Below, in pieces: positions 985 through 53,726 of a DNA stretch of 64,000 nucleotides. Source of the stretch: a virus; the IMG/VR virus record IMGVR_UViG_3300045988_162372, one strand, 5' to 3'. Positions within the stretch are counted from its first letter, which is position 1, and each line of letters begins with the position of its first letter. Both the position numbers and the translations under genes were made by a program. The notes beneath the pieces are model-generated. The model was not told where the DNA came from, made no database searches, and saw only the letters and a program-made list of their open reading frames with translations.

Positions 985-2506
985 CGCTCTCAGGGATATT
1001 AACAGTTATATTGAAATCAACACCAGGCTTATTGTTCATCACATAAGTTCTATATGCATAAGCTTCCTTTGCACGCATATTGTTAATGTAATTTTCTATA
1101 TATGTCCTATCAGTATTACCATTAACGGAAACAGTATATTTTATCATCTGTTTAGTAATGACTTCTTCATATTCATGTTTAAAATTTTCATCCATTTTAA
1201 CATTATCTCCGATAATACTTTTCAAATCAGCAATACAATCGTCTGCATCTTGTTTATCATCATCATTAAAATTATTAAAATTTTTAAAACATTCTTGCAG
1301 ATTATTCAAATGTTCAATGGCATCAAATGCACTAATATTGATACGTTCATTAACTAAATCCCTTTTAAGTTCTTCCTCCTCTTCATAAGATAATACTTTA
1401 AATTTTAATTTAGTTCCACTCTCAGTAGTATAAGTAAACAACCCGTCCTTATCACCTTTCAAATTAAAAGGAAGATATTTTAATTGATTTAAATCAAAAT
1501 CAATGTCATACTTCTTACCAGTATCAGGGTTTGTTGCTGTAATAGGGAAACGACTTCCATAACCAGTAGCTCTAAGCCAAAGAATAACGGCATCTCTATC
1601 GCCTTTGCATAATTCATTAGATCTAACCCTCTTGTCAAGTATCTTTCTATCTAATATAACGTCAACAACTTTTCCATCCCGATACATATTAGGTGAAGCA
1701 ATGAGATTTTCATCAGATGCGGTCAGATATGCAACAGCAAGTCTTCCAATTTTATGAGGGTAGCATTGTCCGTCAGACGGAAGAGGAATCACATCGTATT
1801 GTACATAATCAGGAATTGTACTGTAATCAAAATCATAGCCGTTTACAGGACTATTTTCTGGAATTTCCTCTTCGTCCACTTCCATTTGAGGAACAATTTC
1901 TTCCTTTTTTTCTTCTATCTTCTCAACGGCAGGCATTTCAATAATATCCTCTGTGTTTTTTCTTCTACGTCTTGTTTGTTTTGCTGTGGTTTCTGTTACA
2001 TTTTCTTTCATTTCACTGTTATCAGATAATTCATTATCATTTCTTATGTAAGTTTGATTCATAAGTTTTGTCTCAAGTTCCAAATCCTGTTTAAACTCTT
2101 CATTTTTCTCACGTTTGACGTGTTTTCTATTCTTTTCTGTAAGACTGGATTTAACAGAAACAGTTGCTTGTGTATTTTGTTTATTCCTTAATCCTTCATC
2201 AGTCAATCCTTTCTTTTCAAGACGTTCTTGATATTTTCTTATATAATAAGGAGATACTTCCCTATATGAAGTATTACCCAAATCCTTCTCAGAAGCACCA
2301 TAATACACTTTTGCTTGTTTTCTATTGTCATCCATAGCAGTTTCAATGTCATTTATCGTCTTGGTTTTCGCAATATCATCTAATTTATCCGTACTCATGA
2401 CATTTTTCTTTGCTTCTTCGAGCATTTGGTTCTCAGCTTTCAATATAGCAAGTTCCCTTTTCCGTATTTCAGCCCTTTGTTCAGGTGTAAGTTCTTTTTT
2501 TGCCAT
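923..2506 (-). CDS. hypothetical structural protein; charged coiled-coil N-terminus; C-terminal domain possibly T4-type baseplate-hub-like
   Basis: 527-aa ORF. The C-terminal pattern LPSDGQCYP...LTASDENLI...LCKGDRDAVILWLRATGYGSRFPI recalls the small T4 baseplate-hub family as I remember it. Weak recall, no search done. Confidence 0.4.
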   Translation of the reverse strand: MAKKELTPEQRAEIRKRELAILKAENQMLEEAKKNVMSTDKLDDIAKTKTINDIETAMDDNRKQAKVYYGASEKDLGNTSYREVSPYYIRKYQERLEKKGLTDEGLRNKQNTQATVSVKSSLTEKNRKHVKREKNEEFKQDLELETKLMNQTYIRNDNELSDNSEMKENVTETTAKQTRRRRKNTEDIIEMPAVEKIEEKKEEIVPQMEVDEEEIPENSPVNGYDFDYSTIPDYVQYDVIPLPSDGQCYPHKIGRLAVAYLTASDENLIASPNMYRDGKVVDVILDRKILDKRVRSNELCKGDRDAVILWLRATGYGSRFPITATNPDTGKKYDIDFDLNQLKYLPFNLKGDKDGLFTYTTESGTKLKFKVLSYEEEEELKRDLVNERINISAFDAIEHLNNLQECFKNFNNFNDDDKQDADDCIADLKSIIGDNVKMDENFKHEYEEVITKQMIKYTVSVNGNTDRTYIENYINNMRAKEAYAYRTYVMNNKPGVDFNITVNIPESDGGGSFDTFLTIDDTIFLNI

Positions 2507-2526
2507 TATATATCAAATATTTAGTC

Positions 2527-3135
2527 TTAATTATCCACAACAAAAATTATTTTATTTACTAAAACAGCGTATTCAGAAGCGGAATATCCCTCAACCATCT
2601 TACACTCCTTAAAAATAGCGGAAGATTTCGCATCAGAGAATGTCATTTTGAAATCCTTTTTAGGAAGATTAAAAATTTTTTCTTCTTCAGTAAGTCTTGG
2701 ACTGTGGTTTATATGATTACTTTCTTTCAACCACATCTTCATTTCAGTTTCCAAGTCTGGATTAGATGCCAATTTTATCATTTTAAGAATAATGATGAAT
2801 TGTTCACCAGTTCTGTAAAACCTGATAAGCTCATCAATCGTTTCATCATTCCCTTTAATGTTTCTTACAATGCATTCACAGCTATTGTATTGGTATTCCT
2901 GCTTCACATAGTTTCTTTTTATCTTCTGCTTGCTTCCAAACCAAAGACTTCCACCGAATATGTTCCTTTGTCTGTCATAATTGGAAGAAACAAGCATACT
3001 GACACCATCTTTATACCGATTATAGTCTTCAGTCATAATCTGAATATACTTTCTATCTGTAAAATTAGGGTCATCATATCTAAAACCTTTTACAGGGTCT
3101 CCTATTGCATATGGTAAATAAAGAGTCGCTTTCAT
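2527..3135 (-). CDS. hypothetical protein
   Basis: ORF track gives 2527..3174. I prefer ATG at 3135 (MKATLYLPYAIGDP...) because the first 13 codons are hydrophobic and low-complexity. No motif recognised. Confidence 0.5.
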   Translation of the reverse strand: MKATLYLPYAIGDPVKGFRYDDPNFTDRKYIQIMTEDYNRYKDGVSMLVSSNYDRQRNIFGGSLWFGSKQKIKRNYVKQEYQYNSCECIVRNIKGNDETIDELIRFYRTGEQFIIILKMIKLASNPDLETEMKMWLKESNHINHSPRLTEEEKIFNLPKKDFKMTFSDAKSSAIFKECKMVEGYSASEYAVLVNKIIFVVDN

Positions 3136-17035: not shown

Positions 17036-17202
17036 AGAATTATTACTTTTGCAGCGGAATTACAATATTAAATATATAAATAAATGGATAGAAAAGAAAA
17101 TTGTCATTAAATTAAAAAGTATATGGTGACAATATTGATACATCAATAGAGAATTTTAGTAAGTTCCTGCCGATACCACAAGAGGCTGTAGTTATCTTAA
17201 AT

Positions 17203-17430
17203 GTGGGCATAACTTATCAAAAAAAAAAAACAGAAGACGATATTATTTCTTTTAACGAAGATAAACTACATATTAATAATATTATTCAACATACTAAAGA
17301 CATAATTCCTCCTTTTAAAATTGATATATGCCTTCCAGATTATAGTACAGCGATTGAATATAATGGATTAATATGGCATTCTGAAAATTTAGAAAAGAAA
17401 TACTATCATCTAAAGAAAAATCGAAGAATA
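17203..17430 (+). pseudogene. relic of a homing-endonuclease-like gene (nuclease core only; truncated)
   Basis: DDIISFNEDKLHINNIIQHTKDIIPPFKIDICLPDYSTAIEYNGLIWHSENLEKKYYHLKKN aligns with ICDFITSFGIKAEKHNRTIIKPNEIDILIPEKNIGIEYDGLIWHSEKYKVDSNYHIGKTN of 17963..19417. The Zn-ribbon modules and C-terminal domain are missing. The ORF tail runs antisense into the 17447..17821 gene. A 12-A homopolymer lies at 17219..17230. Confidence 0.6.
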
Positions 17431-17962: not shown

Positions 17963-19417
17963 ATGAACGGTAAAAACCAATTTCCAAAAGTAACTACTGA
18001 AAGTATTATACAAAGATTTATAAATAAACGTGGAGATGAATATGATTATTCTCACGTAATATATAAAAATATGCATACAAAGGTTGCTATTGGTTGTAAA
18101 ATACATGGTATATTCTATCAAACCCCTCATAATCACTTAAAAGGACAAGGATGCCCAGAATGTAGTAAAAAGAAAGTTGCAGATGGACGTAGAATGTCAA
18201 AAGAAGAATTTATCAGAAGAGCAAAAGAGAAACATGGTAACAAATATGATTATTCAAAGGTTGAATATATAAACAATAGAACAAAGGTGTGTATTATTTG
18301 TCCTATTCATGGTGAATTTTGGCAGACACCTGATGAGCATTTAAGATATGGTTGTAAAAAATGTTCTGTAGAATATATTGCTCGAAAAAGAATAGAAAAT
18401 TCTGCTAAAACATTTGAACAAAGAGCAGGTGAAATACATAATTTCAAATATATTTATGAAAAAGATACTTATAAAGGAAATGATAATTTAATAACTGCAT
18501 ATTGTCCTATTCATGGTAAATTTACACAAATTGCGCATTATCATTTACAAGGTTATGGTTGCCCTAAGTGTGGAATAAGAAAATCTGAAAATGAGGATAA
18601 AATATGTGATTTTATTACTTCTTTTGGAATTAAGGCTGAAAAACACAATAGAACAATAATCAAACCTAATGAAATTGATATTCTTATACCAGAAAAGAAT
18701 ATAGGGATTGAATATGATGGCTTAATATGGCATTCTGAGAAATATAAAGTAGATTCTAATTATCATATTGGCAAAACTAATAAATGTAAAGAAAATAATA
18801 TACAATTAATTCATATATTTGAAGATGAATGGTTAGAAAAGGAAAATATAGTTAAATCAAATATATTAAATATATTAGAAGTATATGAAAATAAAATATT
18901 ATCCGATAATTGTGTAGTTAAAAACGTTTCACCTCAACAAGCTAAATATTTTCTAAATAACAACTATATTAAGGGAGAATGTCGAGCTAAAATACATTTA
19001 GGTTTGTATTATAATAATGAATTAATTTCTTTAATGTCATTTTCTAAATTAAAAATATTAAAAGGTGATGTATGGAAATTAGTTTGTTATTGTAATAAAA
19101 TTAATACAAGTATTTTAAATGGGGCAAATAAATTACTTCAATATTTTATAAAAAAAGAATTGCCATCTAAAATTATTACTTATGTTGATAAACGATGGAG
19201 TAATGGAAAAGAATACGTCGAAATGGGATTTACTTATACAAATGACACTAAGCCTGATTATTTCTATGTTATAAATCAACATAGAATAAGTCGTTTTAAA
19301 TATAAAAAGAATGATTTGACACAAAAAGAAATCTATAGAATATATGATTGTGGTTCAATGTGTTTTGAAATGAATTTAAACAAAAAAAAGAGGACTAAAT
19401 ATATAAGTCCTCTTTAA
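17963..19417 (+). CDS. free-standing homing-endonuclease-like protein: 3 Zn-ribbon modules + Vsr-like PD-(D/E)XK core + GNAT-like C-terminal domain
   Basis: Repeated module (KYDYS.V.Y....KV.IICPIHGEFWQTP..HL.G.GCP.C), then NEIDILIPEKNIGIEYDGLIWHSE...IQLIHIFEDEW, then a C-terminal domain shared with 51928..53625 (ends EIYRIYDCGSMCF). Confidence 0.65.
   Translation: MNGKNQFPKVTTESIIQRFINKRGDEYDYSHVIYKNMHTKVAIGCKIHGIFYQTPHNHLKGQGCPECSKKKVADGRRMSKEEFIRRAKEKHGNKYDYSKVEYINNRTKVCIICPIHGEFWQTPDEHLRYGCKKCSVEYIARKRIENSAKTFEQRAGEIHNFKYIYEKDTYKGNDNLITAYCPIHGKFTQIAHYHLQGYGCPKCGIRKSENEDKICDFITSFGIKAEKHNRTIIKPNEIDILIPEKNIGIEYDGLIWHSEKYKVDSNYHIGKTNKCKENNIQLIHIFEDEWLEKENIVKSNILNILEVYENKILSDNCVVKNVSPQQAKYFLNNNYIKGECRAKIHLGLYYNNELISLMSFSKLKILKGDVWKLVCYCNKINTSILNGANKLLQYFIKKELPSKIITYVDKRWSNGKEYVEMGFTYTNDTKPDYFYVINQHRISRFKYKKNDLTQKEIYRIYDCGSMCFEMNLNKKKRTKYISPL
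17990..18574 (+). repeat. three tandem Zn-ribbon DNA-binding-type modules (protein-level repeat)
   Basis: GDEYDYSHVIYKNMHTKVAIGCKIHGIFYQTPHNHLKGQGCPEC / GNKYDYSKVEYINNRTKVCIICPIHGEFWQTPDEHLRYGCKKC / NFKYIYEKDTYKGNDNLITAYCPIHGKFTQIAHYHLQGYGCPKC. Confidence 0.8.
19387..19415. terminator. bidirectional hairpin between the convergent nuclease and sheath genes
   Basis: aaagaggact / agtcctcttt perfect 10-bp stem with a 9-nt loop. It lies inside the last codons of the plus-strand gene. Confidence 0.55.
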
Positions 19418-26823: not shown

Positions 26824-27621
26824 ATGAATACTGAAGAGTTTATAAGAAGAGCGAAAATAATCCACGGTGATAAATATGATTATTCAAAAACAAAATATGT
26901 AAATACCCAAACAAAGGTTTGCATTATTTGTCCAATTCACGGGGAATTCTGGCAGAGATATAGTGATCATTTATATGGAAGAGGGTGCAAAAAATGTATG
27001 GCGGAAAAATTAAGGAATGACAATTCGTTATCCCAAGAAGAGTTTATAAGAAAAGCAAGAGAGGTACATGGTGATAAGTATGATTATTCGAAAGTAATTT
27101 ATAATGGTAATAAAAAGAAAATATGCATTATTTGCCCCATACACGGAGAGTTTTGGCAAATAGCAGGTAATCATTTACGTGGCTATGGATGCCAAAAATG
27201 TGTCAGAAGTATATATGATACTGAAAGTTTTACATATAAAGCAAACATAACACATCATAATAAATATGATTATTCAAAGGTAAAATACGAAGAATATGAT
27301 AAGCCAGTGTGTATTATTTGTCATAAAAAAGATGAAAATGGAATCGAACACGGAGAATTTTGGCAAACACCACATGGACACACACAAGGTAATGGATGCC
27401 CAAAATGTGCGATTGAAGGAATACAACTGCAACACAGAATGACAACCCAAGAATTTATTAAAAAAGCAGAAGAAGTACACGGTGATAAGTATGATTATTC
27501 GAAAGTCGAATATGTAAATTGTAATACACCGATATGTATTATTTGCCCCATACACGGAGAGTTTTGGCAAAAACCTCACAATCATTTAACAGGTAGTGGA
27601 TGTATACTATGTAACGAGAGT
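26824..27621 (+). repeat. four tandem Zn-ribbon modules; modules 2 and 4 nearly identical at the DNA level
   Basis: ggtgataagtatgattattcgaaagt occurs at about 27072 and about 27482. attatttgccccatacacggagagttttggcaaa occurs at about 27128 and about 27538. Offset is 410 nt. Confidence 0.8.
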
Positions 27622-27960
27622 AGGTGTGAGACAAAAGTTAGAAAAATATTATTATCTAATGATATTCATTTTGAGTATCAAAAAAGATTTAATTGGTTAG
27701 GAAAACAATCATTGGATTTCTATTTGCCTGATTATAATATTGCAATTGAATGTCAAGGTGTACAACACTTTAAACCTGTTAGTCATTTTGGAGGAATACT
27801 GGCATTTCACAAACAATATAAAAAAGACAAAATAAAATGGTCTTTATGTGAAGAACATAATATAAAAATTTTATATTATACCATAAATAAAGAAATATTA
27901 AATTCTTCAGTTATAAGAAATGAAAATGATTTATTGAAAGAAATATGGAAGAGAAAATAA
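26824..27960 (+). CDS. free-standing homing-endonuclease-like protein: 4 Zn-ribbon modules + Vsr/DUF559-like PD-(D/E)XK core
   Basis: Four copies of EEFIRKA.EVHGDKYDYSKV.Y....K.CIICPIHGEFWQ.P..HL.G.GC.KC, then LDFYLPDYNIAIECQGVQHF...KDKIKWSLCEEHNIKILYY. Confidence 0.65.
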   Translation: MNTEEFIRRAKIIHGDKYDYSKTKYVNTQTKVCIICPIHGEFWQRYSDHLYGRGCKKCMAEKLRNDNSLSQEEFIRKAREVHGDKYDYSKVIYNGNKKKICIICPIHGEFWQIAGNHLRGYGCQKCVRSIYDTESFTYKANITHHNKYDYSKVKYEEYDKPVCIICHKKDENGIEHGEFWQTPHGHTQGNGCPKCAIEGIQLQHRMTTQEFIKKAEEVHGDKYDYSKVEYVNCNTPICIICPIHGEFWQKPHNHLTGSGCILCNESRCETKVRKILLSNDIHFEYQKRFNWLGKQSLDFYLPDYNIAIECQGVQHFKPVSHFGGILAFHKQYKKDKIKWSLCEEHNIKILYYTINKEILNSSVIRNENDLLKEIWKRK

Positions 27961-31136: not shown

Positions 31137-31165
31137 TAGAAATAAGATATAAAGTAATAATATCA

Positions 31166-31567
31166 ATGGCATATAATTTCTTCATAAACAAAGGGGCAAC
31201 ATTACCAACACTTAGAATGGAAGCAATAAATGACGGCAGACATGATTTCTCTAAATTAAACATTGCCCTACAAGCAGCAGATGTATATTTCAATATGACA
31301 AATATTGAAAATGGTATTAGAAAAATTGCTAATCAAAAAGCAAATGTTATCATGAAAGAAGATAACGGTTGCGAGGATAAATATATCATTGAATATCAAT
31401 GGAAAGAAAGAGATACAAAAACACCAGGACTTTATAAAGGAGAGTTTAGAATTGTATTCAATGACACAGTTGAAGTAGATGGCAAAACATTGCCAATAGG
31501 TGAGTTGATAGTACCTATATCACAAGAACTACACATACATATTATAGAAGGAAATATTAAAAAATGA
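31166..31567 (+). CDS. Ig-like structural protein (BppU-N/DUF2479-like pattern)
   Basis: Start moved to MAYNFFINKGATLPTLRMEA... The pattern ...VYFNMTNIENG...YIIEYQWKERDTKTPGLYKGEFRIVF...LPIGELIVPI resembles N-terminal Ig-like domains of phage baseplate or fibre proteins. Confidence 0.4.
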   Translation: MAYNFFINKGATLPTLRMEAINDGRHDFSKLNIALQAADVYFNMTNIENGIRKIANQKANVIMKEDNGCEDKYIIEYQWKERDTKTPGLYKGEFRIVFNDTVEVDGKTLPIGELIVPISQELHIHIIEGNIKK

Positions 31568-31585
31568 AAAATATAGCTTTCAGGT

Positions 31586-31616
31586 TTTGTTCTTACCCTA
31601 TTTAATAGTATATTTG
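31586..31616 (+). promoter_or_regulatory. Bacteroidota sigma-A type promoter for the DNA polymerase
   Basis: TTTG (31586..31589), 19 nt, TATATTTG (31609..31616). Confidence 0.65.
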
Positions 31617-31678
31617 CATTGAAGTTTGATTGGCATGATGTATTGAAGAGTAATACTTAACTGCTGATTCAGTAAAAT

Positions 31679-34231
31679 ATGTTAATTAATAAATTATTTG
31701 TAATGAGTTCAAAACCTGAAGTAACAAAAGAGCAGGTACATGCTTTTTTGATGGGTAGTAACCCAATGGAACATATCATCAAAATCGAAGGAGATTATAA
31801 TGATGATAAGATTTATGTTATTTACAGAGATGAGAATAACAAACTAAAGACTGACATAGATAATTTCTATCCTTTTGTATGGTGTAAACAAAGCACTGGA
31901 CGTTTTCTCTATAATGGGGACAGAAAGAAACTGAAAGACGCTATGGCTAAATACAATTTAGGCTGTAAGGGTCTTAGAATACATGATACTGATGGAAATG
32001 TACATCCTCGTATGGAAAATGGATATCGTGTCATGTTCTATGCTAAAACACCTATGGCATTTTCCAAATTCCAAAAATTCTTTGAAGAAGGTGGAAGACC
32101 TATATATCCAAAACCAAGCGACAAAAGTTACGGATTAAGGGATTATATCTGTGTTGCTCCTAATGAACAATATATGATTTCAACAGGAAAAAGAATGTTC
32201 AAGGGGTATGAAGATTATGATGACTTGCTACGTCTTGAATGGGACTTGGAAACAGAAGGACTTGACCCAAATATCAATGCCATTTCACAGATTGGTATAA
32301 GAACAAACAAGGGTTTTGAAAAAATCATTTCAATTCAAGGCGAAGGTGAAGAAAAACTTGAAAATGAAATGAAAGGTTTATCAGAGTTTTTCCAAATTGT
32401 AAGAGAAATACAACCTGATGTAATGACAGGACATAACACAGAGAACTTCGACTGGAATTTTATTGATGTTCGTCTAAAAAAGCGTGGGTTATCCCTTTTC
32501 GATTATACACAACAGTTATTTTATGGAAAAGGTATATATAAAAAACAAAAAGAGGCTGTTTTGAAATTAGGAGGGGAAATGGAATATTATTATCCTACTG
32601 TAATGTGGGGACATAATCTTACAGATTCTTTATTTGCTGTAAGACGTGCGCAAGCTCTTGATAGTAATATGAAAAAAGCCGATTTGAAGTATGTTACTAA
32701 ATATTCAAAACTGAATAAACCCAATCGTGTATATGTACCAGGAAAAGTTATTAATAAAACTTGGAGTGATACATCAAAAACTTATGCTTTTAATAATGAG
32801 AATGGTGAATGGTTTAAGATAACAGATGAAATTCTAAACAAAACTTTTATAAATTGTATTGGAGAAAAACTACAAAGATACAGTCTAAATAACGATGGCA
32901 CATTACATGATAATAAAGAAAATCGAGATTTTAAATATGTAACAGGACGATACATTGTTGAACGTTATCTTTTGGATGACCTTTATGAAACAGATAAGGT
33001 GGAGCTTCGTTATAATCAATCTAATTTTCTTGTGGGTAAGATGCTTCCTGTGTCATTTGAGAAAATGTGTACAATGGGAACTGCCGCTATATGGAAGTAT
33101 ATTATGCTTGCATGGAGTTACGAACATGATTTAGCAATTCCAGAATTAATTGATACAAAACCGTTTACAGGTGGATTATCACGTTTATTAAAAGTAGGGT
33201 ATGTAGATAGAATTGTAAAATTGGATTTCAATTCACTTTATCCATCTATTATTCTTTCATTTAATATTAAGACACCTGTAGATGTAATGGGTGTTATGAA
33301 TGCTATTCTTGAATACATCTTGACTGAACGTGAATACTATAAAGGATTAAAGGCAGATTTTGGAGCAAAAGCAAAAAAGATAAAGAAACAAATAGAAGTA
33401 AATCCAAATCTTCCAAATATCAAGGAATTAAAAGAAGAGCAACAAAAATACGAAACAGAAGCTGCACGAAATGACAAGATGCAATTGCCTTTAAAGATTA
33501 CTGGTAATGCATTCTTTGGTTCATACGGTTCTGGAAGCGTTTTTCCTCATTCAGATTTGATTTGTGCAGAAGAAACAACTTGTACAGGACGTATGATGTT
33601 GCGACTTATGATTTCGCATTTCACGAGTATTGGATATGAACCTATTGTAGGTGATTCATTTACCGAAGATACTCCTTTATTTATCAAATATAATAATACA
33701 AATGACATTGATATAGTACCAATATCAAAATTGATAAATGAAAAGAAAATTAAAAAGGATAAATTAGATAGGGAGTATGATACCTCTAAAAAAGATTTTA
33801 AGGTATTATGTAGAAGCGGATGGAAAGAAGCCACATATATTTACAGACATAAAACAGATAAGGATATATATCGTATAAATGATAACAATTGTTCTGTTGA
33901 TGTTACAGAAGACCATTCTCTGTTTAATGAAAAACAAGAGAAAGTAATACCAAGCGAAATAAACAAGAATACTAAACTTGAATATTATAATGGTGGAAAT
34001 ATTATATCGAATAAATATACATTCGATAAACGTAAATTAAATATGTGTGCAGTCCTTGCAGCAGGAAATAGAGAACACGCTTTGATAACAAAAGAAGTGC
34101 TTAATAGTACGGTTTCTTGCAAAAAATATTTCTTGGATAGGTTTGAACATTATAGACAACCAAACAAAAAATATTCAAAGCAAATTATAGCTTCATTACA
34201 ATATATTAAAATGTGTGTAGAAAATAGGTAA
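31679..34231 (+). CDS. polB: family-B DNA polymerase, N-terminal fragment (exonuclease + palm to mid motif C) fused to an N-intein
   Basis: Exo I LEWDLETEGLD, Exo II HNTENFDWNF, Exo III YLLDDLYETD, motif A LDFNSLYPSII, motif B KITGNAFFGSYGS. Polymerase sequence ends ...GYEPIVGD (aa 659), followed by intein block A SFTEDTPLF and block B VDVTEDHSLF. Alternative start MSSKPE at 31703. Confidence 0.85.
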   Translation: MLINKLFVMSSKPEVTKEQVHAFLMGSNPMEHIIKIEGDYNDDKIYVIYRDENNKLKTDIDNFYPFVWCKQSTGRFLYNGDRKKLKDAMAKYNLGCKGLRIHDTDGNVHPRMENGYRVMFYAKTPMAFSKFQKFFEEGGRPIYPKPSDKSYGLRDYICVAPNEQYMISTGKRMFKGYEDYDDLLRLEWDLETEGLDPNINAISQIGIRTNKGFEKIISIQGEGEEKLENEMKGLSEFFQIVREIQPDVMTGHNTENFDWNFIDVRLKKRGLSLFDYTQQLFYGKGIYKKQKEAVLKLGGEMEYYYPTVMWGHNLTDSLFAVRRAQALDSNMKKADLKYVTKYSKLNKPNRVYVPGKVINKTWSDTSKTYAFNNENGEWFKITDEILNKTFINCIGEKLQRYSLNNDGTLHDNKENRDFKYVTGRYIVERYLLDDLYETDKVELRYNQSNFLVGKMLPVSFEKMCTMGTAAIWKYIMLAWSYEHDLAIPELIDTKPFTGGLSRLLKVGYVDRIVKLDFNSLYPSIILSFNIKTPVDVMGVMNAILEYILTEREYYKGLKADFGAKAKKIKKQIEVNPNLPNIKELKEEQQKYETEAARNDKMQLPLKITGNAFFGSYGSGSVFPHSDLICAEETTCTGRMMLRLMISHFTSIGYEPIVGDSFTEDTPLFIKYNNTNDIDIVPISKLINEKKIKKDKLDREYDTSKKDFKVLCRSGWKEATYIYRHKTDKDIYRINDNNCSVDVTEDHSLFNEKQEKVIPSEINKNTKLEYYNGGNIISNKYTFDKRKLNMCAVLAAGNREHALITKEVLNSTVSCKKYFLDRFEHYRQPNKKYSKQIIASLQYIKMCVENR

Positions 34232-34494
34232 TACTTTGACAGAAGAAAAGAGTAAAAATATTTTAGCAAAGAAATATAATTGTCCGCAAAATATATCTGA
34301 ACATGAATTTTGTAAAAGTAAAGGATGGTACAGAATATATGATTGCAGTTGTTTATGCTATAAATGGAAAAAAGTAATAATTAAACAAGAATGTTATGAA
34401 AGTACAAAAAATAAATAAGACTGATAAGTATGTTTATGATATTTCACTTGATGGAACAGTTGTAAACGCATTAGGAATGAATATTCTCTCCAAT
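33656..34494 (+). mobile_element. split intein in PolB motif C: N-intein 33656..34228, 164-nt gap with endonuclease relic, C-intein 34396..34494
   Basis: Ser1 codon at 33656; T-x-x-H block B; stop at 34229..34231. The second ORF opens with the 33-aa MKVQKINKTDKYVYDISLDGTVVNALGMNILSN, then Thr+1 at 34495. Joined exteins read PIVGD-TDGFNF. Confidence 0.7.
34236..34418 (+). pseudogene. relic of the C-terminus of the Zn-ribbon/Vsr-like nuclease family, lying between the intein halves
   Basis: SKNILAKKYNCPQNISEHEFCKSKGWYRIYDCSCLCYKW aligns with SKNNMIKKYGLDKKLTEWEMARQLGYDRIWDCGLLKYVW (C-terminus of 51928..53625) and with EIYRIYDCGSMCF (C-terminus of 17963..19417). Confidence 0.6.
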
Positions 34495-36048
34495 ACAGAT
34501 GGATTTAATTTTCAAATGCCTAAAACATTTCGTTATACTGACGAGCATCCGTATATAAGTGATGGGGGAGGACGCAATAGTGAAAAAGGTAAAAAATATA
34601 CAAAAGTAGATGCAGATGTTGCTGAATTTGAAGACAAGTATTTAAATCACGCCTTTAATGGAGGTATTAATAAAAACGGTCTTGGTATAGATGAATATTG
34701 TAATGCTACCATTAATTTTGCTCGTAAGAATTATGCAGACTTGCTTGATAATGGAAAGATTAAAATGGTTGGAAATACAATCAAATCCAAAAAAATGCCT
34801 ATTTACATTGAAAAATTTTTGAATGAAGCCATAAGACTTTTATTAAATGGTAAAGGCGCAGAATTTCTTGAATATTACTATGATTATGTAGAGAAAATTT
34901 ACAATTTACAAATTCCATTACAAGATATTGCAACTGTTGGTAAAATAAAAGTCAATCTTGATACCTATAAAGCTAATTGCAAGAAATTGACATCAGCAGG
35001 AACTAAGAAAGCAAGACAAGCATGGTATGAGCTTGCAATTAAAGACAATTTAAATGTCAATATGGGCGATGCAATATATTATATCAATGTGGGAAATAAA
35101 AAAGCTACATCAGACATACAAAGAGTGAGCAAATTATATTATATTGATAAAAATGGAAATAAATGCGAGGATTTCATTGATGAAAATGGTGAGGTTGTGT
35201 ATGATAAAAAAGGAAACCCTAGTAATTTTACTAAGAAAATAAAAGCGGAGTATGATAAGCTGAAAAAATCAATGAATAAATCGGTTATAAAGAACATAAA
35301 TGACCCATCCAATACATTTTATACTATACTTGAGTACGCCCAACAGAAATATCCTTTCTTAAAAATTCAGGAAGAAGATGAGATAATATTCAATTGTGTT
35401 AGACTTTCAAATGAAATTGTAGAGGACGAAGAGGAACATTTTTGCACTGCTGATTTTGAATATAATAGGGCAAAATACATCAATATGTTCAACAGTCGTA
35501 TAAGACCCTTGCTTGTATGTTTTGATAAAAAAATCAGAACAAAAATAAACGATAAAGGTAAAGAAGTTGACAACATCTTAATTGATAACCCAAAAGATAG
35601 AAAAGCCTTTACCGAGGATGAAAGTAAACTTGTATCTGGTCAACCATATAACATAAAAGATCAAGACACTTATGAACAACTTATGACTATCGAGGATAAG
35701 GAAATCAAGTTTTGGTTATCAGTTAACAAAACACCACCTTTTGTAAAAGAATGTGGAATTGATTGGGATAAGACTGTTGAAAAATATCAAGAAAGACAGA
35801 AACAACTTGAAAGTGAAGGAGTTAAAGCTGAACTGGAAGAGTATAATAAAATAATTGATTCTTTAAAAGAAAGTGATGTAGAAAAATTCAACGAAACTGG
35901 TGAATTGCCAGATAAGTTAATGAAACTCATTGATATAAATATGGATACATATGACTTCGTTTCAAAGAAATGGGGAGTTATATTAGGAAGTATGTTTGAT
36001 GTACTTGATAAAGATTTTAGTATAAATAGATTTGATGCGGAAGAATGA
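34396..36048 (+). CDS. polB: C-intein (33 aa) fused to the family-B DNA polymerase C-terminal fragment (rest of motif C, thumb)
   Basis: After ...NILSN the sequence TDGFNF completes motif C. ARKNYADLLDNGKIKMVGNTIKSKKMP matches the KKRY-type region that follows motif C in family-B polymerases. Confidence 0.8.
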   Translation: MKVQKINKTDKYVYDISLDGTVVNALGMNILSNTDGFNFQMPKTFRYTDEHPYISDGGGRNSEKGKKYTKVDADVAEFEDKYLNHAFNGGINKNGLGIDEYCNATINFARKNYADLLDNGKIKMVGNTIKSKKMPIYIEKFLNEAIRLLLNGKGAEFLEYYYDYVEKIYNLQIPLQDIATVGKIKVNLDTYKANCKKLTSAGTKKARQAWYELAIKDNLNVNMGDAIYYINVGNKKATSDIQRVSKLYYIDKNGNKCEDFIDENGEVVYDKKGNPSNFTKKIKAEYDKLKKSMNKSVIKNINDPSNTFYTILEYAQQKYPFLKIQEEDEIIFNCVRLSNEIVEDEEEHFCTADFEYNRAKYINMFNSRIRPLLVCFDKKIRTKINDKGKEVDNILIDNPKDRKAFTEDESKLVSGQPYNIKDQDTYEQLMTIEDKEIKFWLSVNKTPPFVKECGIDWDKTVEKYQERQKQLESEGVKAELEEYNKIIDSLKESDVEKFNETGELPDKLMKLIDINMDTYDFVSKKWGVILGSMFDVLDKDFSINRFDAEE

Positions 36049-36314
36049 TGAAAGACAAAATTATAAATAATATAGGTAAAATTATAATACTATCAGCAAT
36101 AGTTATTATTTCTCTTATTTGGATATTTATAGGCTTTAAGAGCGTACTTTTAACTATAGGTGTATTAACTCTACTATCGTACATAAATACAGCTATTACA
36201 ACACTTGGAAATGCCTTTATTGGACGTGATATAAATATGAGTTATGATATATTTTGGAAAATGCTATTCATATTCATAACATCGTTATGTTTTGGAATTT
36301 ACTTTAATATATAA
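36045..36314 (+). CDS. small membrane protein (3 predicted TM segments)
   Basis: IIILSAIVIISLIWIFIGF, VLLTIGVLTLLSYINTAITTLG, MLFIFITSLCFGIYF. 4-nt overlap with the polymerase stop. Confidence 0.5.
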   Translation: MMKDKIINNIGKIIILSAIVIISLIWIFIGFKSVLLTIGVLTLLSYINTAITTLGNAFIGRDINMSYDIFWKMLFIFITSLCFGIYFNI

Positions 36315-36320
36315 AAAAAA

Positions 36321-36353
36321 AATAAGGAAGAGAAAATTAATCTCTTCCTTATT
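36321..36353. terminator. bidirectional hairpin terminator
   Basis: Perfect 13-bp stem aataaggaagaga / tctcttccttatt with a 7-nt loop, preceded by an A-run. Confidence 0.65.
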
Positions 36354-36374
36354 AGGTATGTGATGACACTCTAA

Positions 36375-37862
36375 TTAGTATGTTCCACAATCAAATACAG
36401 CATCTGCCTTCATACCAATACCTTCCGCAGATACTTCAATCATAGGATCAGAAGGTTTAGCTACGGCTGTGATGGTTTTTTCAGTACCGTCTCCACTTAC
36501 ATTGATACCCTTACCTGCAACCACTGAAATAGCTGCATCCCTAACAGCATCAATAGCATCAGCATTCGCTTTAGCCTGAGTGTCAAGCTGAGTAATAGCA
36601 TCCATAACAGAAGTAGCGTCATTGACATACGTTGCACCGACAGGAGCAGTAAATGTGCCATCTGTGCCAAGACCAACAGAAGCCTCTACTTTATCAATAG
36701 CAGCTTGAACTCCCTGTTTAGCAGCATCAATAGCAGCTTGAACTCCACTCAGCTTAATACCATCAGCACCAACTGTCAAGAATGCTTCAGTTGAACCGTC
36801 AAGTTTTGCAGCAATAACTTTTCCACTAACAGAAATACCATCGCCTGCTGTATAAACATCAATCAAAGAGGTTACATTAAGGTTGATAACTTTGTCTCCT
36901 GCATCAGTATTGAATGTGAATACCAAGAATGTGCCACTTTGAGCTTCACCAACAGGCTGGTCAGCAGAAGCGGTTTTTAATTCAACATTTTGAAGCATTC
37001 CATCTTTAATGAAATCAGTGGCAGCAATAGTTGCAATTGCAGCACCATCCTTACCAATTAATTTCAAGCCGTCAGATTTGCTCCAAGTCAAGTTAATGTT
37101 AGCAAGTAAACCATCCGTAGTCTGAGTTAAAACTTTATCAGCAGTATTAAGTTTTAAAGAGATTGTCTTTTCACCTTCATTTTCTTCTGATACTGCAATA
37201 GCGTCTTGCCCTACATATTGTACGAGGGCAGCACTTGCAACACTCATAACACCAGTTTCTCCATTAACAACGATAGTAGTGCCATCAACATTTGCTTTCA
37301 AGTCAATGCCACCGTCTGCGCCATCACCGATAACAACAGTTTTGTTATTAGAAGTAATAGCACCACGTTTTACAGCAATTTTACCGTCTGTTTCTGATAC
37401 TTCGGTAACAAAACTTTTTGCAACAGCAGTATCTGCAACATCAAGAGCTTGAACAGCGGCTGTAATTTGGCCATCGGCATAATCTTTTGCATCTTGTTCA
37501 GCTTTTGAGATTGAGCCTTCACCACTTCCATTAATTTTTACCAATGCATCAGCAATTTTCTTAATAGTGTCATAAGCATCATCAATTGCTGAATCCTCAC
37601 CACCTTTAATGGCAGCAATGGCAGCATCAAGAGCATCCTGTACCTCAGAAGGAATAGCATCAGCATCAAAGATTGTATAATCTTCAGCACCTTTAATACC
37701 AAATAAAACCTTTTCAGGTTTAATATCTGTGTCACCGCCACCGTAGGTAGCGATTGCAGGTTCACCGACAGCAGCAGTAGCTAAATAAGCTTTAAGACCA
37801 TTTAAAGCTGCTGTTTTGTTTTCATAATTTACATGTCTTTTTAGTTGTAATGTATAAGCCAT
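36375..37862 (-). CDS. tail fibre / fibre-like protein (Ala/Gly/Thr-rich)
   Basis: N-terminus YTLQLKRHVNYENKTAALNGLKAYLATAAVGEPAIATYGG resembles the LQLRRG...GEP fibre N-terminal motif. It shares the module ...LIDVYTAGDGISVSG...FLTVGADGIKLSGVQAAIDAA with the next gene. Confidence 0.6.
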   Translation of the reverse strand: MAYTLQLKRHVNYENKTAALNGLKAYLATAAVGEPAIATYGGGDTDIKPEKVLFGIKGAEDYTIFDADAIPSEVQDALDAAIAAIKGGEDSAIDDAYDTIKKIADALVKINGSGEGSISKAEQDAKDYADGQITAAVQALDVADTAVAKSFVTEVSETDGKIAVKRGAITSNNKTVVIGDGADGGIDLKANVDGTTIVVNGETGVMSVASAALVQYVGQDAIAVSEENEGEKTISLKLNTADKVLTQTTDGLLANINLTWSKSDGLKLIGKDGAAIATIAATDFIKDGMLQNVELKTASADQPVGEAQSGTFLVFTFNTDAGDKVINLNVTSLIDVYTAGDGISVSGKVIAAKLDGSTEAFLTVGADGIKLSGVQAAIDAAKQGVQAAIDKVEASVGLGTDGTFTAPVGATYVNDATSVMDAITQLDTQAKANADAIDAVRDAAISVVAGKGINVSGDGTEKTITAVAKPSDPMIEVSAEGIGMKADAVFDCGTY

Positions 37863-37951
37863 TGTAGTATTATAATTAAATTAATTATCTTATTATTAAT
37901 ATAATTGGTAATCTATTTTTCAAGACCACCAATTATAATTATTATTAAATT

Positions 37952-40900
37952 TTAGGAATTACTTCCATATTCACCAAAATCAATCAAATTATTTATGATT
38001 TCTTCAATCGTTGCCAATCTTTCAGCCACACTAGGCTTGCCTTCTTCTGGTTCACCTATTTGTTCCTTGATTTGGTTAATAGTTTGATTGATAGTGTTAA
38101 TATTATTATTAACAGTTGTCAAATCACCTTCCAATTTTGAAATTCTATTTTCATAGCCTTCAACTTGATTACTCAATTCGGTAAACTGATTAGAGAGATT
38201 AGTAACTTGACTTCCTAGTTCAGTAACTTGTGTTGTTAAGTTATTGATAGCACCCGTATTCTGTGCAATGTTTTGTGTATTCTGTTCAACCTTAGTCTGT
38301 AAATTAGTAACATTGCCTTGAAGGACTGTGATATCGCTCTTAGCCTGTGCCATATCAGACTTCAAAGTATCAACGTCAGAAACAAGTCCTGCAACTTTAT
38401 CAGTTTCAGTTTTCAAATTTTCAATTGCTTTCTGAACAGTAACTTCATCGCCACCCCATAAGGCTGTCAATTTACTTGCCTCATTGCTCATATAAAGTGT
38501 ACCGTTGTTGTTCAATATACCATTATGAGCTTCTGTTGAAATGGCTAACCTTGCACGTAAAATATCAACGTTGTCTGCACCAGCTGTTTTGGTTAATGTA
38601 ATAGGATTATCAGTTCCATTATCAATAGTCCATTCATTTACTATATCTCCAACTGGTATAGAAATTTGCTGTGTTTCACCACCATCTTTAGCAATAGTTA
38701 GAACAATGCTTTGTGTTACACTATCATAATGTCCCTCTTGAACTAGTGAATGTTCGGATAGTGTAAATTTAGATTTTTCATTACCATTAACAATCAAGGC
38801 AATGCTATTCTCAGCCTTATTATAATTCAATGCTATAGAAGAATAAACACCATTACCATCAAGCTTGATAATATTATCTTCGGTTGTGTTGAGTTTTAAA
38901 TCAGCTTTCAATGTTGTACCACCGTCAGCTTTACTTGCAGTCAAAGCAATTGAATTTGTTTCAGAAGTGATAATATTTAATCTTCTATCTTCTGCTTGCA
39001 ATAAGCTAACATTAGTTTCAATCGCAGTTGCTCTATCTTCAAGTGCATCAATAGCGTCAGCATTTAACTTTTCAGCAATTTGCGCTCTGGATGTTTCATC
39101 TGCGACATCTGTTTTCGTTGCGTAATCGCTTAAATCAACAGAGGTAAGATAACCTTTTTTATCAATTTCTTCTTTCGTATATACATCCGCAGAATTAGCT
39201 TTTTTCTCCAACCCTCTATCAGCATACTCCTTAGCTTGAGTTAAGGCATTATCAGCTTTTGTTGTAGCATCAGTGGCAGCGGTAGCAATTGCATTATCTT
39301 GAGCTTCCTGTGTTTTAGTGTCAATAGTTCCATTAAGAGTATCAATTGCAGCATCAATACCATTTATGCTTACACCGTCAGCACTTACTGTCAGATATTT
39401 TTCTGACAATGTTGCTTTTCTTACTGAGAATGTATTTGCGGACAAAGACATACCATCACCTGCTGTATAAGTGTCAACCAAATCAGAAATATCAACTTCA
39501 ATAGGTTGCTCATGTTCATTTTCAGTCTTGAAAATGAATTGAAGTTTATGAGAAGCATTATCATAATTTACAGATTTCAAGAATTGGTCTTGTGGAATGT
39601 TAATATCACCTGCAACAACACCATCAACCAGTACTTGATAATGCAAATCATTTGCTTCATCTTTTACAACTTCGACACTTTCAATCTTTGTTGCAAGACT
39701 TGTTTCAAGCTCTTTATCTTTGGCTTTCAACTCTTCAATTGAGGTAGATAAATTTCCTTCATTTGTCTCAAGTTTTGCAATCTCACTATCCGTGTATGCT
39801 TTTGCATCAGTTAAAACTTTTTCATCCTTAGCAACATAATCAGCTACCAGTTTATCTTCAAGAGCATCATTTGCATTATGAATATCACTGGTTACTGTAG
39901 TGTAATTCTTAGCGATCTCACTATCAGTATAAGCCTTTGCATCAACCAATGCCTTATCAGCTTTAGATGTCGCATCAGAAGAAGCAGTATTAACAGCATC
40001 AGTTTTTGCATTACTGATTTCAGCTTGCAATTCAAGTTTGGCTGTGCCAAGTTGTGTATCAGTATATGTTTTCGATTCGGCAATAGCACTACTAACCTGA
40101 GAAGCGACACTACTCGTTAAATCATTAATTCTTTCATGTAATGCGCTTTCAGCATTTTCTGCACGTTGCTGTTCGGCTTGAATACCCTGATTTAAAGTAT
40201 CATATGTGTATTTCAACATATATCTTACAGAATTTGGGGTATTCTCATCAGCATTTAACGAATCAATAGCTTTCTTGTTTTCCTCTACACTTGTTCTAAG
40301 TGTTTCAATAGCATTTGTATTAGCAGAAATTAAATTAGCATTTGCTAATTCAGCAGCCTTTGCTCTTTCACTTTCTTGTGTAATATTTTCTTGTAGCCTA
40401 GCTTCAACACCAGTTGCTCTTTCTGTTTCAACTGCAATAGCATTATCAATTGTACTCTTGGGAGCAAGTAATTCGCCATTTCCATTGATAGATAAAATAT
40501 TGTCGTTAGAGGCTAATCGAAATGCGGTTGTAACGACTTTTTCTGTGCTTCTTGTGTTATCACTTACTTGGAATACGACAGGGCTTGATGTATTGTTTTC
40601 AAATCTATAAATGGTAATTAATCCACTCATAGGAATTCTTACAGTATTCCCGTTGTTGAATTCAATTACAAGTTCCTGTGTAACACTATCATAATAAGCA
40701 TTGTCAATAAAATCAACACCAGGAAGTTCAACCTCTTTTGTAACATTACCAGTTCTTACAATCAATTTATTAGATGCAATATCACAGGTAATTTCAATAT
40801 CAACTTCCAAACCGCCATCTTTATGGATAATAGTTTTATTACCTCCAAGCCTCACACCACCAGAAATTCTGTAACCAACATTGGTTTCTTTTGTTGCAGT

Positions 40901-41962: not shown

Positions 41963-41993
41963 TATTAATATCTAATTTTTATGTGTTATATTA

Positions 41994-51927: not shown

Positions 51928-53625
51928 TTATCTTTCATTTCTTATCCAAACATATTTTAATAATCCGCAATCCCATATTCTATCATATCCTAACTGTCTT
52001 GCCATTTCCCATTCGGTTAATTTCTTATCTAGGCCATATTTTTTTATCATATTATTTTTTGATAAGATCATTTTATGAATTCGTTTATTTCCATGAATAT
52101 GAGAATTATAATATTTATAGTCAGGCTTTAATATTTTTGATAAATGAAAACCTATATGTGTATATAAATTATCATTTTCATCAACAGTCCATCTTCTATC
52201 AGCAAAAGAAGTTATCATATTAGAATTGTAATTCTTAATAAAGTAAGAGAATAATTTTCCACCGATACCAACACAATGATAATTGTAATTAGTTGCAAAT
52301 CTATTTAATTCCCATTCTTTGATTTTAACACTTCCATGTTTAAAAGTCATCACCCCAATTAATTCATTATTGTAATAACACCCAAGATATACTGTTGACG
52401 GAGCAAATCCTTGAATGTGATATTTGTTTAGGAATTCTTCAGCCTGATATTTATATATTTCTTTAACCGTACATTTACGAGCATATATTTTATTAACAGA
52501 GTGATTTATATGTAAAATATGTGCTATTTTACTCATAACAATATCGTGTTTTTCGATAAATTCATCATCAAAAATTTGAATTAATTTTATACCTTGTGCA
52601 TTACATTCATTTAATTTATTTAAATGATAATTTTTATCCTTACCAAATCTTTCACAATGCCAATATAAACCGTTATACTCAATAGCAACTCTTTTTTCTG
52701 GAACATATATATCAATTTCTCTTCCATTCAATATACCTCTATCTTTATGACATTCTAAATTATTATTATTAATAAAACTAATAATTTCTTTTTCAGCAGC
52801 AGAAGTATATTTTTCAATACCTTTTTCGCTTAATACTAAATTATTCTTTTGTGCTATTGCTCGAAATTTAGACAGTGTATCGGCACACATTATACCTTCT
52901 TTGCCATATCTTAAAATATATTCTTCTTTTGTAATTCCATGAAATTTCAGATGGGCATTACTTATCTTTGTTAGTTTTTTCCCACATATTTTACAAGTAA
53001 TAAATTTATTAGCATCATCCTCCATTTGCCTATTTTTAATAGGATTGGCAATTTGAAAATATTTTTTTTCTTCTGGAAAATTTTTAATGTAATCAAATTT
53101 AGATATATTGTGAACACTTTTTAGATGTTGCTCAAAAGCACCACTTTTGTTTTCAACATCACTTGTAACCCATTCACAAAATGGACATTTCTTAACAGGC
53201 TTATTTTCTACTTTTCTATACGACAACCATTGTTCCCACCAATAATTACCAGTTTTCATATAATACATTCTTCTATCATACAATGTTGGTATTTCAACAT
53301 TGTATTGTTTTTTAATATAAGACGTTAAAACACCGCCATTATTATTAATGTCACAAGATTTGAATTCTGTATTTTTATCAAAAACTTCATAATGGTAATC
53401 ATTAGTATCAATATACTTTTTTATATGATAATCCTTAACCACAAATGCATCATTATTATTTTGTCCACCTCTTTTTTTAAATTGAATACCATTCTGAGAA
53501 AGTATTTGTTTAATTCTAAGTTTCCCCACATGATATTTAAGGGCTAAGGTTTCAATACCAATTTTACTATTAAGATATTCATCACAAATAATCTTTTCAT
53601 CAAGTATAGCTTTTGTTTTCGACAT
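51928..53625 (-). CDS. free-standing homing-endonuclease-like protein: HTH + C2H2-type fingers + Vsr-like PD-(D/E)XK core + GNAT-like C-terminal domain
   Basis: Start moved to MSKTKAILDEK (ATG 53625) because the track's extension covers the MCP terminator and this gene's own promoter. CPFCEW...HLKSVH, CKICGK...HLKFH. REIDIYVPEKRVAIEYNGLYWHCE...IKLIQIFDDEF. C-terminus ...HCVGIGGKLFSYFIKNY...GYDRIWDCGLLKYVW. Confidence 0.65.
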   Translation of the reverse strand: MSKTKAILDEKIICDEYLNSKIGIETLALKYHVGKLRIKQILSQNGIQFKKRGGQNNNDAFVVKDYHIKKYIDTNDYHYEVFDKNTEFKSCDINNNGGVLTSYIKKQYNVEIPTLYDRRMYYMKTGNYWWEQWLSYRKVENKPVKKCPFCEWVTSDVENKSGAFEQHLKSVHNISKFDYIKNFPEEKKYFQIANPIKNRQMEDDANKFITCKICGKKLTKISNAHLKFHGITKEEYILRYGKEGIMCADTLSKFRAIAQKNNLVLSEKGIEKYTSAAEKEIISFINNNNLECHKDRGILNGREIDIYVPEKRVAIEYNGLYWHCERFGKDKNYHLNKLNECNAQGIKLIQIFDDEFIEKHDIVMSKIAHILHINHSVNKIYARKCTVKEIYKYQAEEFLNKYHIQGFAPSTVYLGCYYNNELIGVMTFKHGSVKIKEWELNRFATNYNYHCVGIGGKLFSYFIKNYNSNMITSFADRRWTVDENDNLYTHIGFHLSKILKPDYKYYNSHIHGNKRIHKMILSKNNMIKKYGLDKKLTEWEMARQLGYDRIWDCGLLKYVWIRNER

Positions 53626-53652
53626 ATCTAATACATTTTTAATTTTACAATG

Positions 53653-53684
53653 CAAAGATACTATTTTTATACCAAACATACAAA
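53653..53684 (-). promoter_or_regulatory. Bacteroidota sigma-A type promoter for the nuclease gene
   Basis: Minus-strand TTTG (53684..53681), 20 nt, TATCTTTG (53660..53653). ATG at 53625. Confidence 0.6.
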
Positions 53685-53726
53685 TGAAAACCCATTTATT
53701 TTCGTTAAAAAAATATATAAACAAAA

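Follow-up and report, generated by a model that had tools for sequence, protein, structure and literature searches.

In 2009, Dassa et al. (PMC2677866) described 'fractured genes', in which a phage replication enzyme is broken at an intein and the two halves lie next to each other. In that paper, half of the endonuclease genes belong to a new Vsr-like family, the N-inteins are 88-105 aa long, and LAGLIDADG endonucleases are not mentioned. In the model given there, an intein-coding region is invaded (step II) and the endonuclease gene is later lost (step III, locus gp41-7), and the 3' end of the endonuclease gene supplies the start codon of the downstream half. A 2025 preprint on actinobacteriophage inteins adopts this model. 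Here we analyzed the window, a 64,000-nt IMG/VR record (IMGVR_UViG_3300045988_162372), in which the family-B DNA polymerase (PolB) of a jumbo phage is coded by two separate open reading frames (ORFs) on the same strand, with a short gap ORF at the break (Table 1). We propose, with a probability of roughly 0.85, that this polymerase carries a split intein with the skeleton of a LAGLIDADG domain, into which a second nuclease gene was inserted that later collapsed to a pseudogene. The locus is a clear example of the fractured-gene model of 2009, not a new kind of system.

Like the intein of the window, Aes123 PolB1 (PMC11923092; PDB 9hth) is a naturally split intein of a phage PolB that begins with Ser and has no catalytic cysteine. 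Its Hint domain shows a distant similarity to the profile of the window's intein family (E 1.3e-4, marginal), but its fragments are 120 and 39 aa long and hold no endonuclease remnant. Canonical LAGLIDADG inteins (LAGLIDADG_3/Hom_end; PI-TkoII, 2cw7; TliVMA/PhoVMA, 7qss/7qst) have ordinary members in L014, L040 and others (L-numbers denote related phage loci). Compared with them, the tail of the window's N-intein is colinear with the motif 1 helix, block D, the motif 2 helix and the next helix, but it is without catalytic acids, beta-saddle and Pfam match. The catalytic domain of the I-Bth0305I/EDxHD family (Taylor et al. 2011, PMC3239194; PDB 3r3p) is matched by the endonuclease gene of L006 (E 0.008). 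Unlike I-Bth0305I, the phage genes add N-terminal DUF723/DUF4379 zinc-ribbon repeats and a GNAT/Mom-like C-terminal domain, and of this last domain only the end is left in the gap ORF of the window, hereafter the relic.

The locus resembles the fractured genes of Dassa et al. in that a phage replication enzyme is broken at an intein with its halves adjacent, in that relatives have a Vsr-like endonuclease gene between the halves whose 3' end overlaps the downstream start, and in that loss of the endonuclease gene is the expected later stage of their scheme. It differs in that the N-intein is 191 aa long, because an apparently LAGLIDADG-derived domain has been kept; in that the invaded intein would already have had a LAGLIDADG domain, whereas their model starts from an intein without an endonuclease domain; and in that the window holds a partial, in-frame deletion remnant instead of the clean loss of step III. 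PolB with a GD|TDG insertion site is apparently not among their eight enzyme types. The sequence-only reading of this stretch had called it a snapshot of how split inteins arise, which fits, but the idea had already been published in 2009. The case absent from the 2009 model is that of a second, unrelated nuclease succeeding the first within one intein. Our literature search, in which subscription journals were poorly covered, found no description of a natural split intein with such a LAGLIDADG remnant.

Results

Layout of the split polymerase gene

ORF1 matches Pfam DNA_pol_B and DNA_pol_B_exo1, and archaeal PolB structures align with the profile of this polymerase family as far as the 'YAD' of motif C, which places the intein within GD|TDG of that motif. 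Inteinless relatives run through GD-TDG uninterrupted. In the window, the polymerase sequence '...GYEPIVGD' passes at residue 660 into 'SFTEDTPLFIKY...VTEDHSLF...', which corresponds to intein blocks A and B. The N-intein starts as 'SFTEDTPL' with Ser1 (S660, 33656-33658), and the 'TEDH' of its block B 'VTEDHSLF' lies at 33905-33916. A Foldseek search with the AlphaFold model of the N-intein matched the intein structures 2cw7, 5o9i, NeqN/NeqC and Aes123 PolB1. The C-intein contains 'YVYDIS', ends with '...NILSN', and aligns with blocks F/G of contiguous inteins in MAFFT. The layout is that of a fractured gene: the enzyme gene is cut at the intein insertion point into two adjacent ORFs on the same strand, the N-part ends with blocks A/B, and the C-part opens with blocks F/G, the terminal Asn and then the nucleophile Thr.

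Table 1 Features of the split polymerase locus and of the full-length nuclease genes with which the relic was compared.
Feature	Position	Strand	Description	Basis
ORF1	31679..34231	+	850 aa; PolB N-part fused to 191-aa N-intein	
N-extein	31679..33655	+	aa 1-659; ends '...IVGD', first half of motif C	Pfam, profile alignment
N-intein Hint N-lobe	33656..33985	+	aa 660-769	Motifs read in sequence, Foldseek
N-intein tail	33986..34231	+	aa 770-850 plus stop; predicted four-helix, putatively LAGLIDADG-derived domain	
Tail part with significant LAGLIDADG homology	34073..34228	+	'HALITKEVLNS...KKYFLDRF...YSKQIIASLQYIK'	hhalign
Lost nuclease start codon	34224..34226	+	ATA in the window, ATG in L006 (6083-6085)	
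Gap ORF (putative nuclease relic)	34236..34418	+	TTG start, 60 codons; overlaps downstream gene start	
Deletion junction	34250..34258	+	A-rich AGRAAAA stretch, flanking the deleted segment on either side in L006	
ORF2	34396..36048	+	550 aa; 33-aa C-intein fused to PolB C-part	
C-intein	34396..34494	+	aa 1-33 of ORF2, 'MKVQKINKTDKYVYDISLDGTVVNALGMNILSN'	Read in sequence
C-extein	34495..36048	+	Starts with Thr+1 in 'TDGFNF', second half of motif C	
484-aa nuclease	17963..19417	+	Full-length	phrog_559 E 3e-103; Pfam DUF723, weak Vsr and GNAT
598-aa nuclease	51928..53724	-	Full-length; closest window gene to the relic	phrog_3339 E 2e-94

Judging from these motifs and from the purifying selection described below, the two halves are presumably joined by trans-splicing. 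They would be translated separately and then joined through Ser1, the TxxH of block B, the terminal Asn and Thr+1, giving a 1176-aa polymerase in which 'GDTDG' of motif C is restored. The penultimate residue of the C-intein is Ser ('LSN', 34489..34494), where many inteins have His; this feature of class 1 inteins, a His before the terminal Asn, is absent from the window's C-intein. Inteins without the penultimate His exist. The split alleles L005, L006, L022 and L086 also have Ser at this position (with the window, the endings are '..LSN', '..VSN', '..MSN' and '..CSN'), whereas the contiguous LAGLIDADG alleles have His ('..AHN', '..CHN'), save L044 with Lys ('..LKN').

A megablast search of the locus against GenBank phages gave no match, and in a protein search the PolB relatives, from Salinibacter, Campylobacter and cyanophages, were all distant (22-27 % identity). 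RNA folding of 34200-34440 (z-score 0.2) and a terminator scan revealed no terminator, and the hairpin of Dassa et al. is not evident in this segment. A promoter scan gave a single sigma-70-like match over the relic start, at background frequency.

States of the insertion site in related loci

Searching IMG/VR with ORF2 yielded 80 loci, and the classification covered 85 loci including separately retrieved contigs. The polymerase halves are directly contiguous, without intein, in 47 loci. A contiguous LAGLIDADG intein is found in 10 loci and additionally in L038, a locus that does not reach as far as the N-extein; its intein was identified by direct reading, and the classifier's list has L042 in its place. 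Eighteen loci are split, with ~1.4-4.5 kb and nuclease homologs between the exteins. Two of these are separate contigs (L002 and L005) and 16 come from IMG/VR, where L015, with nuclease homologs before the C-intein and its N-extein outside the locus, brings the number to 17. A further locus (L022, 7727..8100) is split with a spacer of ~27 nt and no endonuclease remnant. In the script's output, 20 loci bear the label 'split', namely the 18 with nucleases, L022 and L023.

Nuclease homologs lie between the halves in L002, L007-L013, L016, L017, L024-L026, L037, L047 and L057, and intact nuclease genes in L001, L005 and L006 (561 and 633 aa in L001 and L006). The partial contigs L001, L003 and L004 carry the N-intein, and L001 and L003 also nuclease ORFs. 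In the window, an intact free-standing endonuclease gene is absent between the halves, where only the 60-codon remnant is found; it is the only locus seen with a partial nuclease remnant, and L022 is the fully cleaned-up end state of the split intein. The allele states are scattered across polymerases of all degrees of similarity, a pattern that mobile elements would be expected to give. Among large phages of a single clade, the polymerase site is thus seen in six states: empty, with a LAGLIDADG intein, split with skeleton and nuclease ORF(s), with a collapsed nuclease (the window), without nuclease, and, in one lineage, with a displaced second N-intein copy. This series gives sequence-level intermediates for the gene-breaking model of 2009. 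The sequence-only reading had proposed that an endonuclease-containing intein was invaded by a second, unrelated nuclease gene, which broke it in two and then decayed. Alleles with an intact intein, with an intervening nuclease and without intein are all found at the GD|TDG site, and together with the 581-codon in-frame deletion relative to the L006 gene (next section) they support that proposal.

The displaced copy is found in L086 (5001..5519), a free-standing, degenerate second N-intein with tail, 172 aa long and without Ser1 and TxxH, between the PolB-N::N-intein gene and two endonuclease genes. It is also present in L087-L089, and its protein (P0117) occurs on at least 24 contigs. The tail of this extra copy is of the window type (73 % nucleotide identity to 34004-34216), whereas the fused N-intein has a different tail type, which suggests that an older intein allele was displaced by another and that its N-half stayed in place. 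Separately, the polymerase gene of L023 (7860..8020) lies in two frames near motif C without intein sequence, a break that may reflect a frameshift, an error of sequencing or a fracture without intein. L037, L057 and L039 have a ~316-nt insertion in the PolB C-part, ~230 nt after the extein start, which interrupts the C-extein tblastn match at query residues ~71-74 and may be another inserted element in the polymerase gene.

The nuclease remnant and its intact counterpart

The relic consists of the first nuclease codons fused in frame to the last ~37-39 family-homologous codons (aa ~7-46), followed by a read-through extension of 14-16 aa, and it overlaps the downstream gene from its ATG by 23 nt. 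A pairwise BLASTP comparison with the last 40 aa of the 598-aa nuclease gave 16/39 identities (E 3e-8), and a tblastn search of the whole window gave E 1.8e-6. The sequence-only reading had aligned the gap ORF with the C-termini of both large nucleases of the window; the alignment holds for the 598-aa protein, and for the 484-aa protein it covers only 12 aa (E 4e-4). The relic also matches PHROG 559 (E 1.6e-4, positions 562-601 of 607) and PHROG 3339 (E 8e-4), in both at the far C-terminal end, and is 72 % identical in amino acids to the 3' end of the L006 endonuclease gene.

L006 is a locus from the 216,649-bp contig IMGVR_UViG_3300045988_157961, 98.5 % identical to window positions 31141-34258 and 96.9 % to 34251-43994. 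Between these two aligned segments, L006 has 1743 bp more than the window, which is exactly 581 codons and forms the body of a 633-aa ORF (L006 6083..7984) between the N-intein and C-intein genes. The window retains the first codons of this ORF ('..LTEEK') and a region homologous to its last ~39 codons, 'NILAKKYNCPQNISEHEFCKSKGWYRIYDCSCLCYKW..'. The two BLAST segments overlap by 8 bp at the junction, which was inspected base by base. In the relic, the conserved 'DCG' has become 'DCS' and the nuclease stop is shifted, so that the relic reads on into the start of ORF2. The L006 protein matches phrog_559 (E 9e-150) and contains DUF4379/DUF723 zinc ribbons, and its match to the I-Bth0305I catalytic domain lies around 'LAIEFDGIFWH'. 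These matches identify it as a member of the Vsr-like/EDxHD homing endonuclease family, extended at both ends. The full-length paralogs of the window show weak Pfam Vsr matches, and in the C-terminal extension of the family weak GNAT and Mom matches were found in paralogs. The catalytic core is absent from the relic and lies in the missing 581 codons. Judging from these homologies, the gap ORF is the remnant of a free-standing Vsr-like (EDxHD) homing endonuclease gene.

Other traces of this nuclease family were also seen. A second relic lies at 17122..17427 (+), just upstream of the 484-aa gene, and tblastn aligns it with the Vsr/EDxHD core of two genes, the 598-aa paralog (q273-370, E 1.5e-9) and the L001 gene. 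A third DUF723-family nuclease of 378 aa at 26824..27960 (+) matches the N-terminal 317 aa of the L001 gene (E 5e-75), apparently without a GNAT-like C-domain. Upstream of its polymerase gene, L006 has a further DUF723/DUF4379 gene of 384 aa (1857..3011) that is missing from the window; this difference (window 31112/31141 versus L006 1800..2999) is another presence/absence polymorphism of the nuclease family.

Identity between the window and L006 is not uniform. It is 99-100 % in the polymerase exteins, 95-96 % in the N-intein, 77-86 % in the relic, 88-90 % in the C-intein and the first ~150 nt of the C-extein, and 97-100 % beyond 34654. The trough spans 33741..34653 and is centred on the endonuclease site, within polymerase genes that are otherwise 99-100 % identical. 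This is consistent with recombination or co-conversion around a homing endonuclease site, an endonuclease-driven exchange between near-identical phage genomes. The differences between the relic and the L006 3' end are mostly synonymous (dS 1.3, dN/dS 0.08 over 39 codons). A fast-decaying recent deletion of an L006-like gene was ruled out by this mostly synonymous divergence within a wider trough, which instead indicates a different donor allele.

Some observations weigh against a simple collapse of the L006 gene to a pseudogene. The relic diverges from the L006 3' end far more than its flanks do (99 %), which suggests that the deletion arose in a different endonuclease allele and that the junction deduced from L006 is approximate. 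Moreover, the deletion is exactly in frame and the relic ORF is still open, which leaves room for residual function. The relic could therefore be a retained functional mini-gene, acting through translational coupling or as a small DNA-binding or immunity peptide. Such a role would fit its overlap with the downstream ATG, its low dN/dS, which comes from only 39 codons, and the downstream start that the endonuclease 3' end provides in the genes of Dassa et al. On the other hand, the relic has lost its ATG, carries 'DCS' and has a shifted stop, L022 works with its short spacer and without any relic, and an exact search for the deletion junction in IMG/VR gave no match, which makes the deletion allele the only one of its kind to date. 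Divergence while both nuclease genes were still intact accounts better for the low dN/dS. We therefore consider a retained mini-gene unlikely. We regard the relic as a pseudogene, whose 3' part may persist mainly because it abuts the downstream translation start.

The same unmatched junction, together with the several paralogous nuclease genes of this genome, could also be read as an assembly collapse between repeated endonuclease copies, with a full gene in the real genome. However, the nuclease paralogs share only 33-46 % protein identity over their aligned parts and hence no long nucleotide repeats, the A-rich junction stretch of 7-8 nt is too short for k-mer collapse, and the relic has its own substitutions, its shifted stop and the ATG-to-ATA change. 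A collapse of this kind is very improbable.

Ancestry of the N-intein tail

The Hint N-lobe is followed by ~80 residues, from aa 770 (33986) to aa 850. The sequence-only reading had rightly noticed this extension but placed its start slightly late, at 34020 (aa 781). AlphaFold2 with the family alignment predicts the whole N-intein with a pLDDT of 93 and a pTM of 0.86, and in this model the tail forms four helices (N-intein residues 125-136, 146-149, 153-166 and 175-189). The tail alone is modelled with a pLDDT of 88.5.

Evidence for a LAGLIDADG ancestry comes from intact inteins at the identical GD|TDG site in related loci. They are uninterrupted and 355-358 aa long (L014 and L038, 355 aa; L044, 357 aa; L040-L043, L048, L051, L054 and L082, 358 aa), and ten of them align as a single family. 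They share Ser1, block B '(V/C)TEDHSLF' and blocks F/G 'YVYDIS..GTF...HN', and contain both LAGLIDADG motifs ('GFFMADGS'/'GFFLGDGS' and 'GFCCGDGQ'/'GVFASDGY'). The two that were scanned, L014 and L040, pass Pfam LAGLIDADG_3 (E 8e-9 and 2e-12). The Hint lobes of split and intact inteins are 42-48 % identical. When the tail profile was compared with the ten aligned intact inteins by hhalign, it matched over 57 columns with a probability of 90.8 % and E 1.2e-6, pairing tail residues 30-80 with intein positions 225-290, that is, block D, LAGLIDADG motif 2 and the next helix. The consensus of the tail reads 'idRIPxxILNxxkxxxkxFlxxf...ySKTxlAGLqFIK' against 'KKVPxxILNaxxxiKKAFieGv..DG......KSqvAMAGi.lllkEL' of the intein. 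A tail hidden Markov model (HMM) searched against 4223 translated ORFs found L014 (i-E 1.3e-5) and L038 (domain i-E 2.2e-4, whole ORF 2.4e-5) at this same region.

A global MAFFT alignment of fused split and contiguous inteins is colinear and puts tail helix 1 ('MCAVLAAG', 'AKMILDG') on LAGLIDADG motif 1 ('FGFFMADG'). Helix 1 probably corresponds to the motif 1 helix, as a positional claim only. Relative to the contiguous inteins, the split version lacks ~95 aa of first-half beta-sheets, ~10 aa around the 'GDG' turn and ~40 aa of the second-half remainder.

A number of results do not favor this ancestry. Pfam scans of the tail, the N-intein and the fused intein gave no match, for the tail not even at E <= 10, and 61 family tails scanned singly against Pfam gave scattered noise only. 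In a PDB sequence-profile search, the tail gave nothing beyond weak noise of the uS13 type (E >= 0.1). Foldseek of the tail alone found nothing significant in PDB or BFVD; the top BFVD entries are mostly intein-host proteins, which, being non-significant, is a hint only. In hhalign, motif 1 is the best placement of tail helix 1, but at E 0.2-0.4 it is not significant. The tail models are all-helical, without the alpha-beta-beta-alpha-beta-beta-alpha fold and without the beta-sheet DNA-binding saddle, and the catalytic acids are absent, as the motif 2 'GDG' falls in an alignment gap and the window reads 'LAAGN' at the motif 1 position.

Taken by themselves, these results would suit an unrelated helical domain, such as a docking or cap domain or a small DNA-binding domain, that the N-intein acquired and whose likeness to motif 2 is due to chance or convergence. 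Against this stands the profile-profile match at the colinear position of inteins that share the insertion site, Ser1, 'TEDHSLF' and blocks F/G, with Hint lobes as similar as given above. We find an unrelated origin quite improbable. The tail, as far as these alignments can tell, is of LAGLIDADG descent but can no longer be counted in that family, having no saddle, no catalytic acids and no profile match. With the saddle, the acidic 'GDG' residues and the C-terminal third gone, the derived domain should be unable to cut DNA. The sequence-only reading had seen eroded LAGLIDADG blocks in the tail. Their descent is borne out through the allelic intact inteins, and a direct match of the tail to a LAGLIDADG profile, whose absence that reading had named as a refutation, was not obtained. 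The erosion is not borne out, as the tail is conserved and confidently folded (see below).

Proposed history

Gene anatomy, homologies, the presence/absence series and purifying selection are consistent with a history in three layers. In the first layer, an ancestral intein of ~355 aa would have held a LAGLIDADG homing endonuclease domain that was later stripped to a helical skeleton, whose helices are probably LAGLIDADG helix 1, the block D helix, LAGLIDADG helix 2 and the helix after it. In the second, a free-standing homing endonuclease gene, encoding zinc-ribbon repeats, a Vsr-like/EDxHD nuclease core and a GNAT-like C-domain, would have inserted within the LAGLIDADG-coding region, giving the upstream half a stop codon and the downstream half a start, and in this way splitting the intein. 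In the third, the nuclease gene of the window would have collapsed, with 581 codons gone and ATG changed to ATA, leaving the 60-codon pseudogene; the deletion may have occurred by slippage at the short A-rich repeat. All split alleles share both features, so that either order, LAGLIDADG reduction before or after the nuclease invasion, fits.

Conservation and possible role of the tail

The tail is conserved and under purifying selection, and is not decaying. Between the window and L001 (81 % nucleotide identity), the tail has a dN/dS of 0.046 and the Hint lobe one of 0.057, at a dS of ~1.6, which indicates that constraint acts on the tail protein. A search with the 191-aa N-intein found 146 homologs, all of the tail-bearing type, most of which cover 97-100 % of the query at 40-55 % identity. 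Those N-inteins among them that were read or aligned end a few residues past the conserved '(Y)SKTxxAGLQYLK' helix. A profile of 61 tails matched 82 proteins among 1.84 billion cluster representatives, and in nearly all of these the tail domain is at or within a few residues of the C-terminus, the one exception being a 2580-aa repeat protein. In the tail HMM search of related loci, the tail domain closes the N-intein ORF in every split allele.

N-intein aggregation is a documented bottleneck for split inteins (PMC11923092). The tail has probably been retained for the folding or solubility of the N-intein fragment. A stronger proposal is that the helical tail is an exapted, required module of a natural split intein rather than a passive relic, which could stabilise or solubilise the 191-aa N-intein or raise its affinity for the 33-aa C-intein. 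We put this forward only tentatively and think it somewhat doubtful. If true, it would define a structurally new class of natural split inteins without a catalytic cysteine (Ser1/Thr+1), in which a dead homing endonuclease has been recycled into the splicing machinery. In any case, the conserved tail is a target for split-intein engineers, as a naturally extended N-fragment with no cysteine in catalysis. We also note a 226-aa protein (P0091), in which an N-terminus resembling PP2C phosphatases runs at 'GDS' into the C-terminal part of an N-intein whose tail is of the window type; assembly probably created this chimera at the shared GDS motif.

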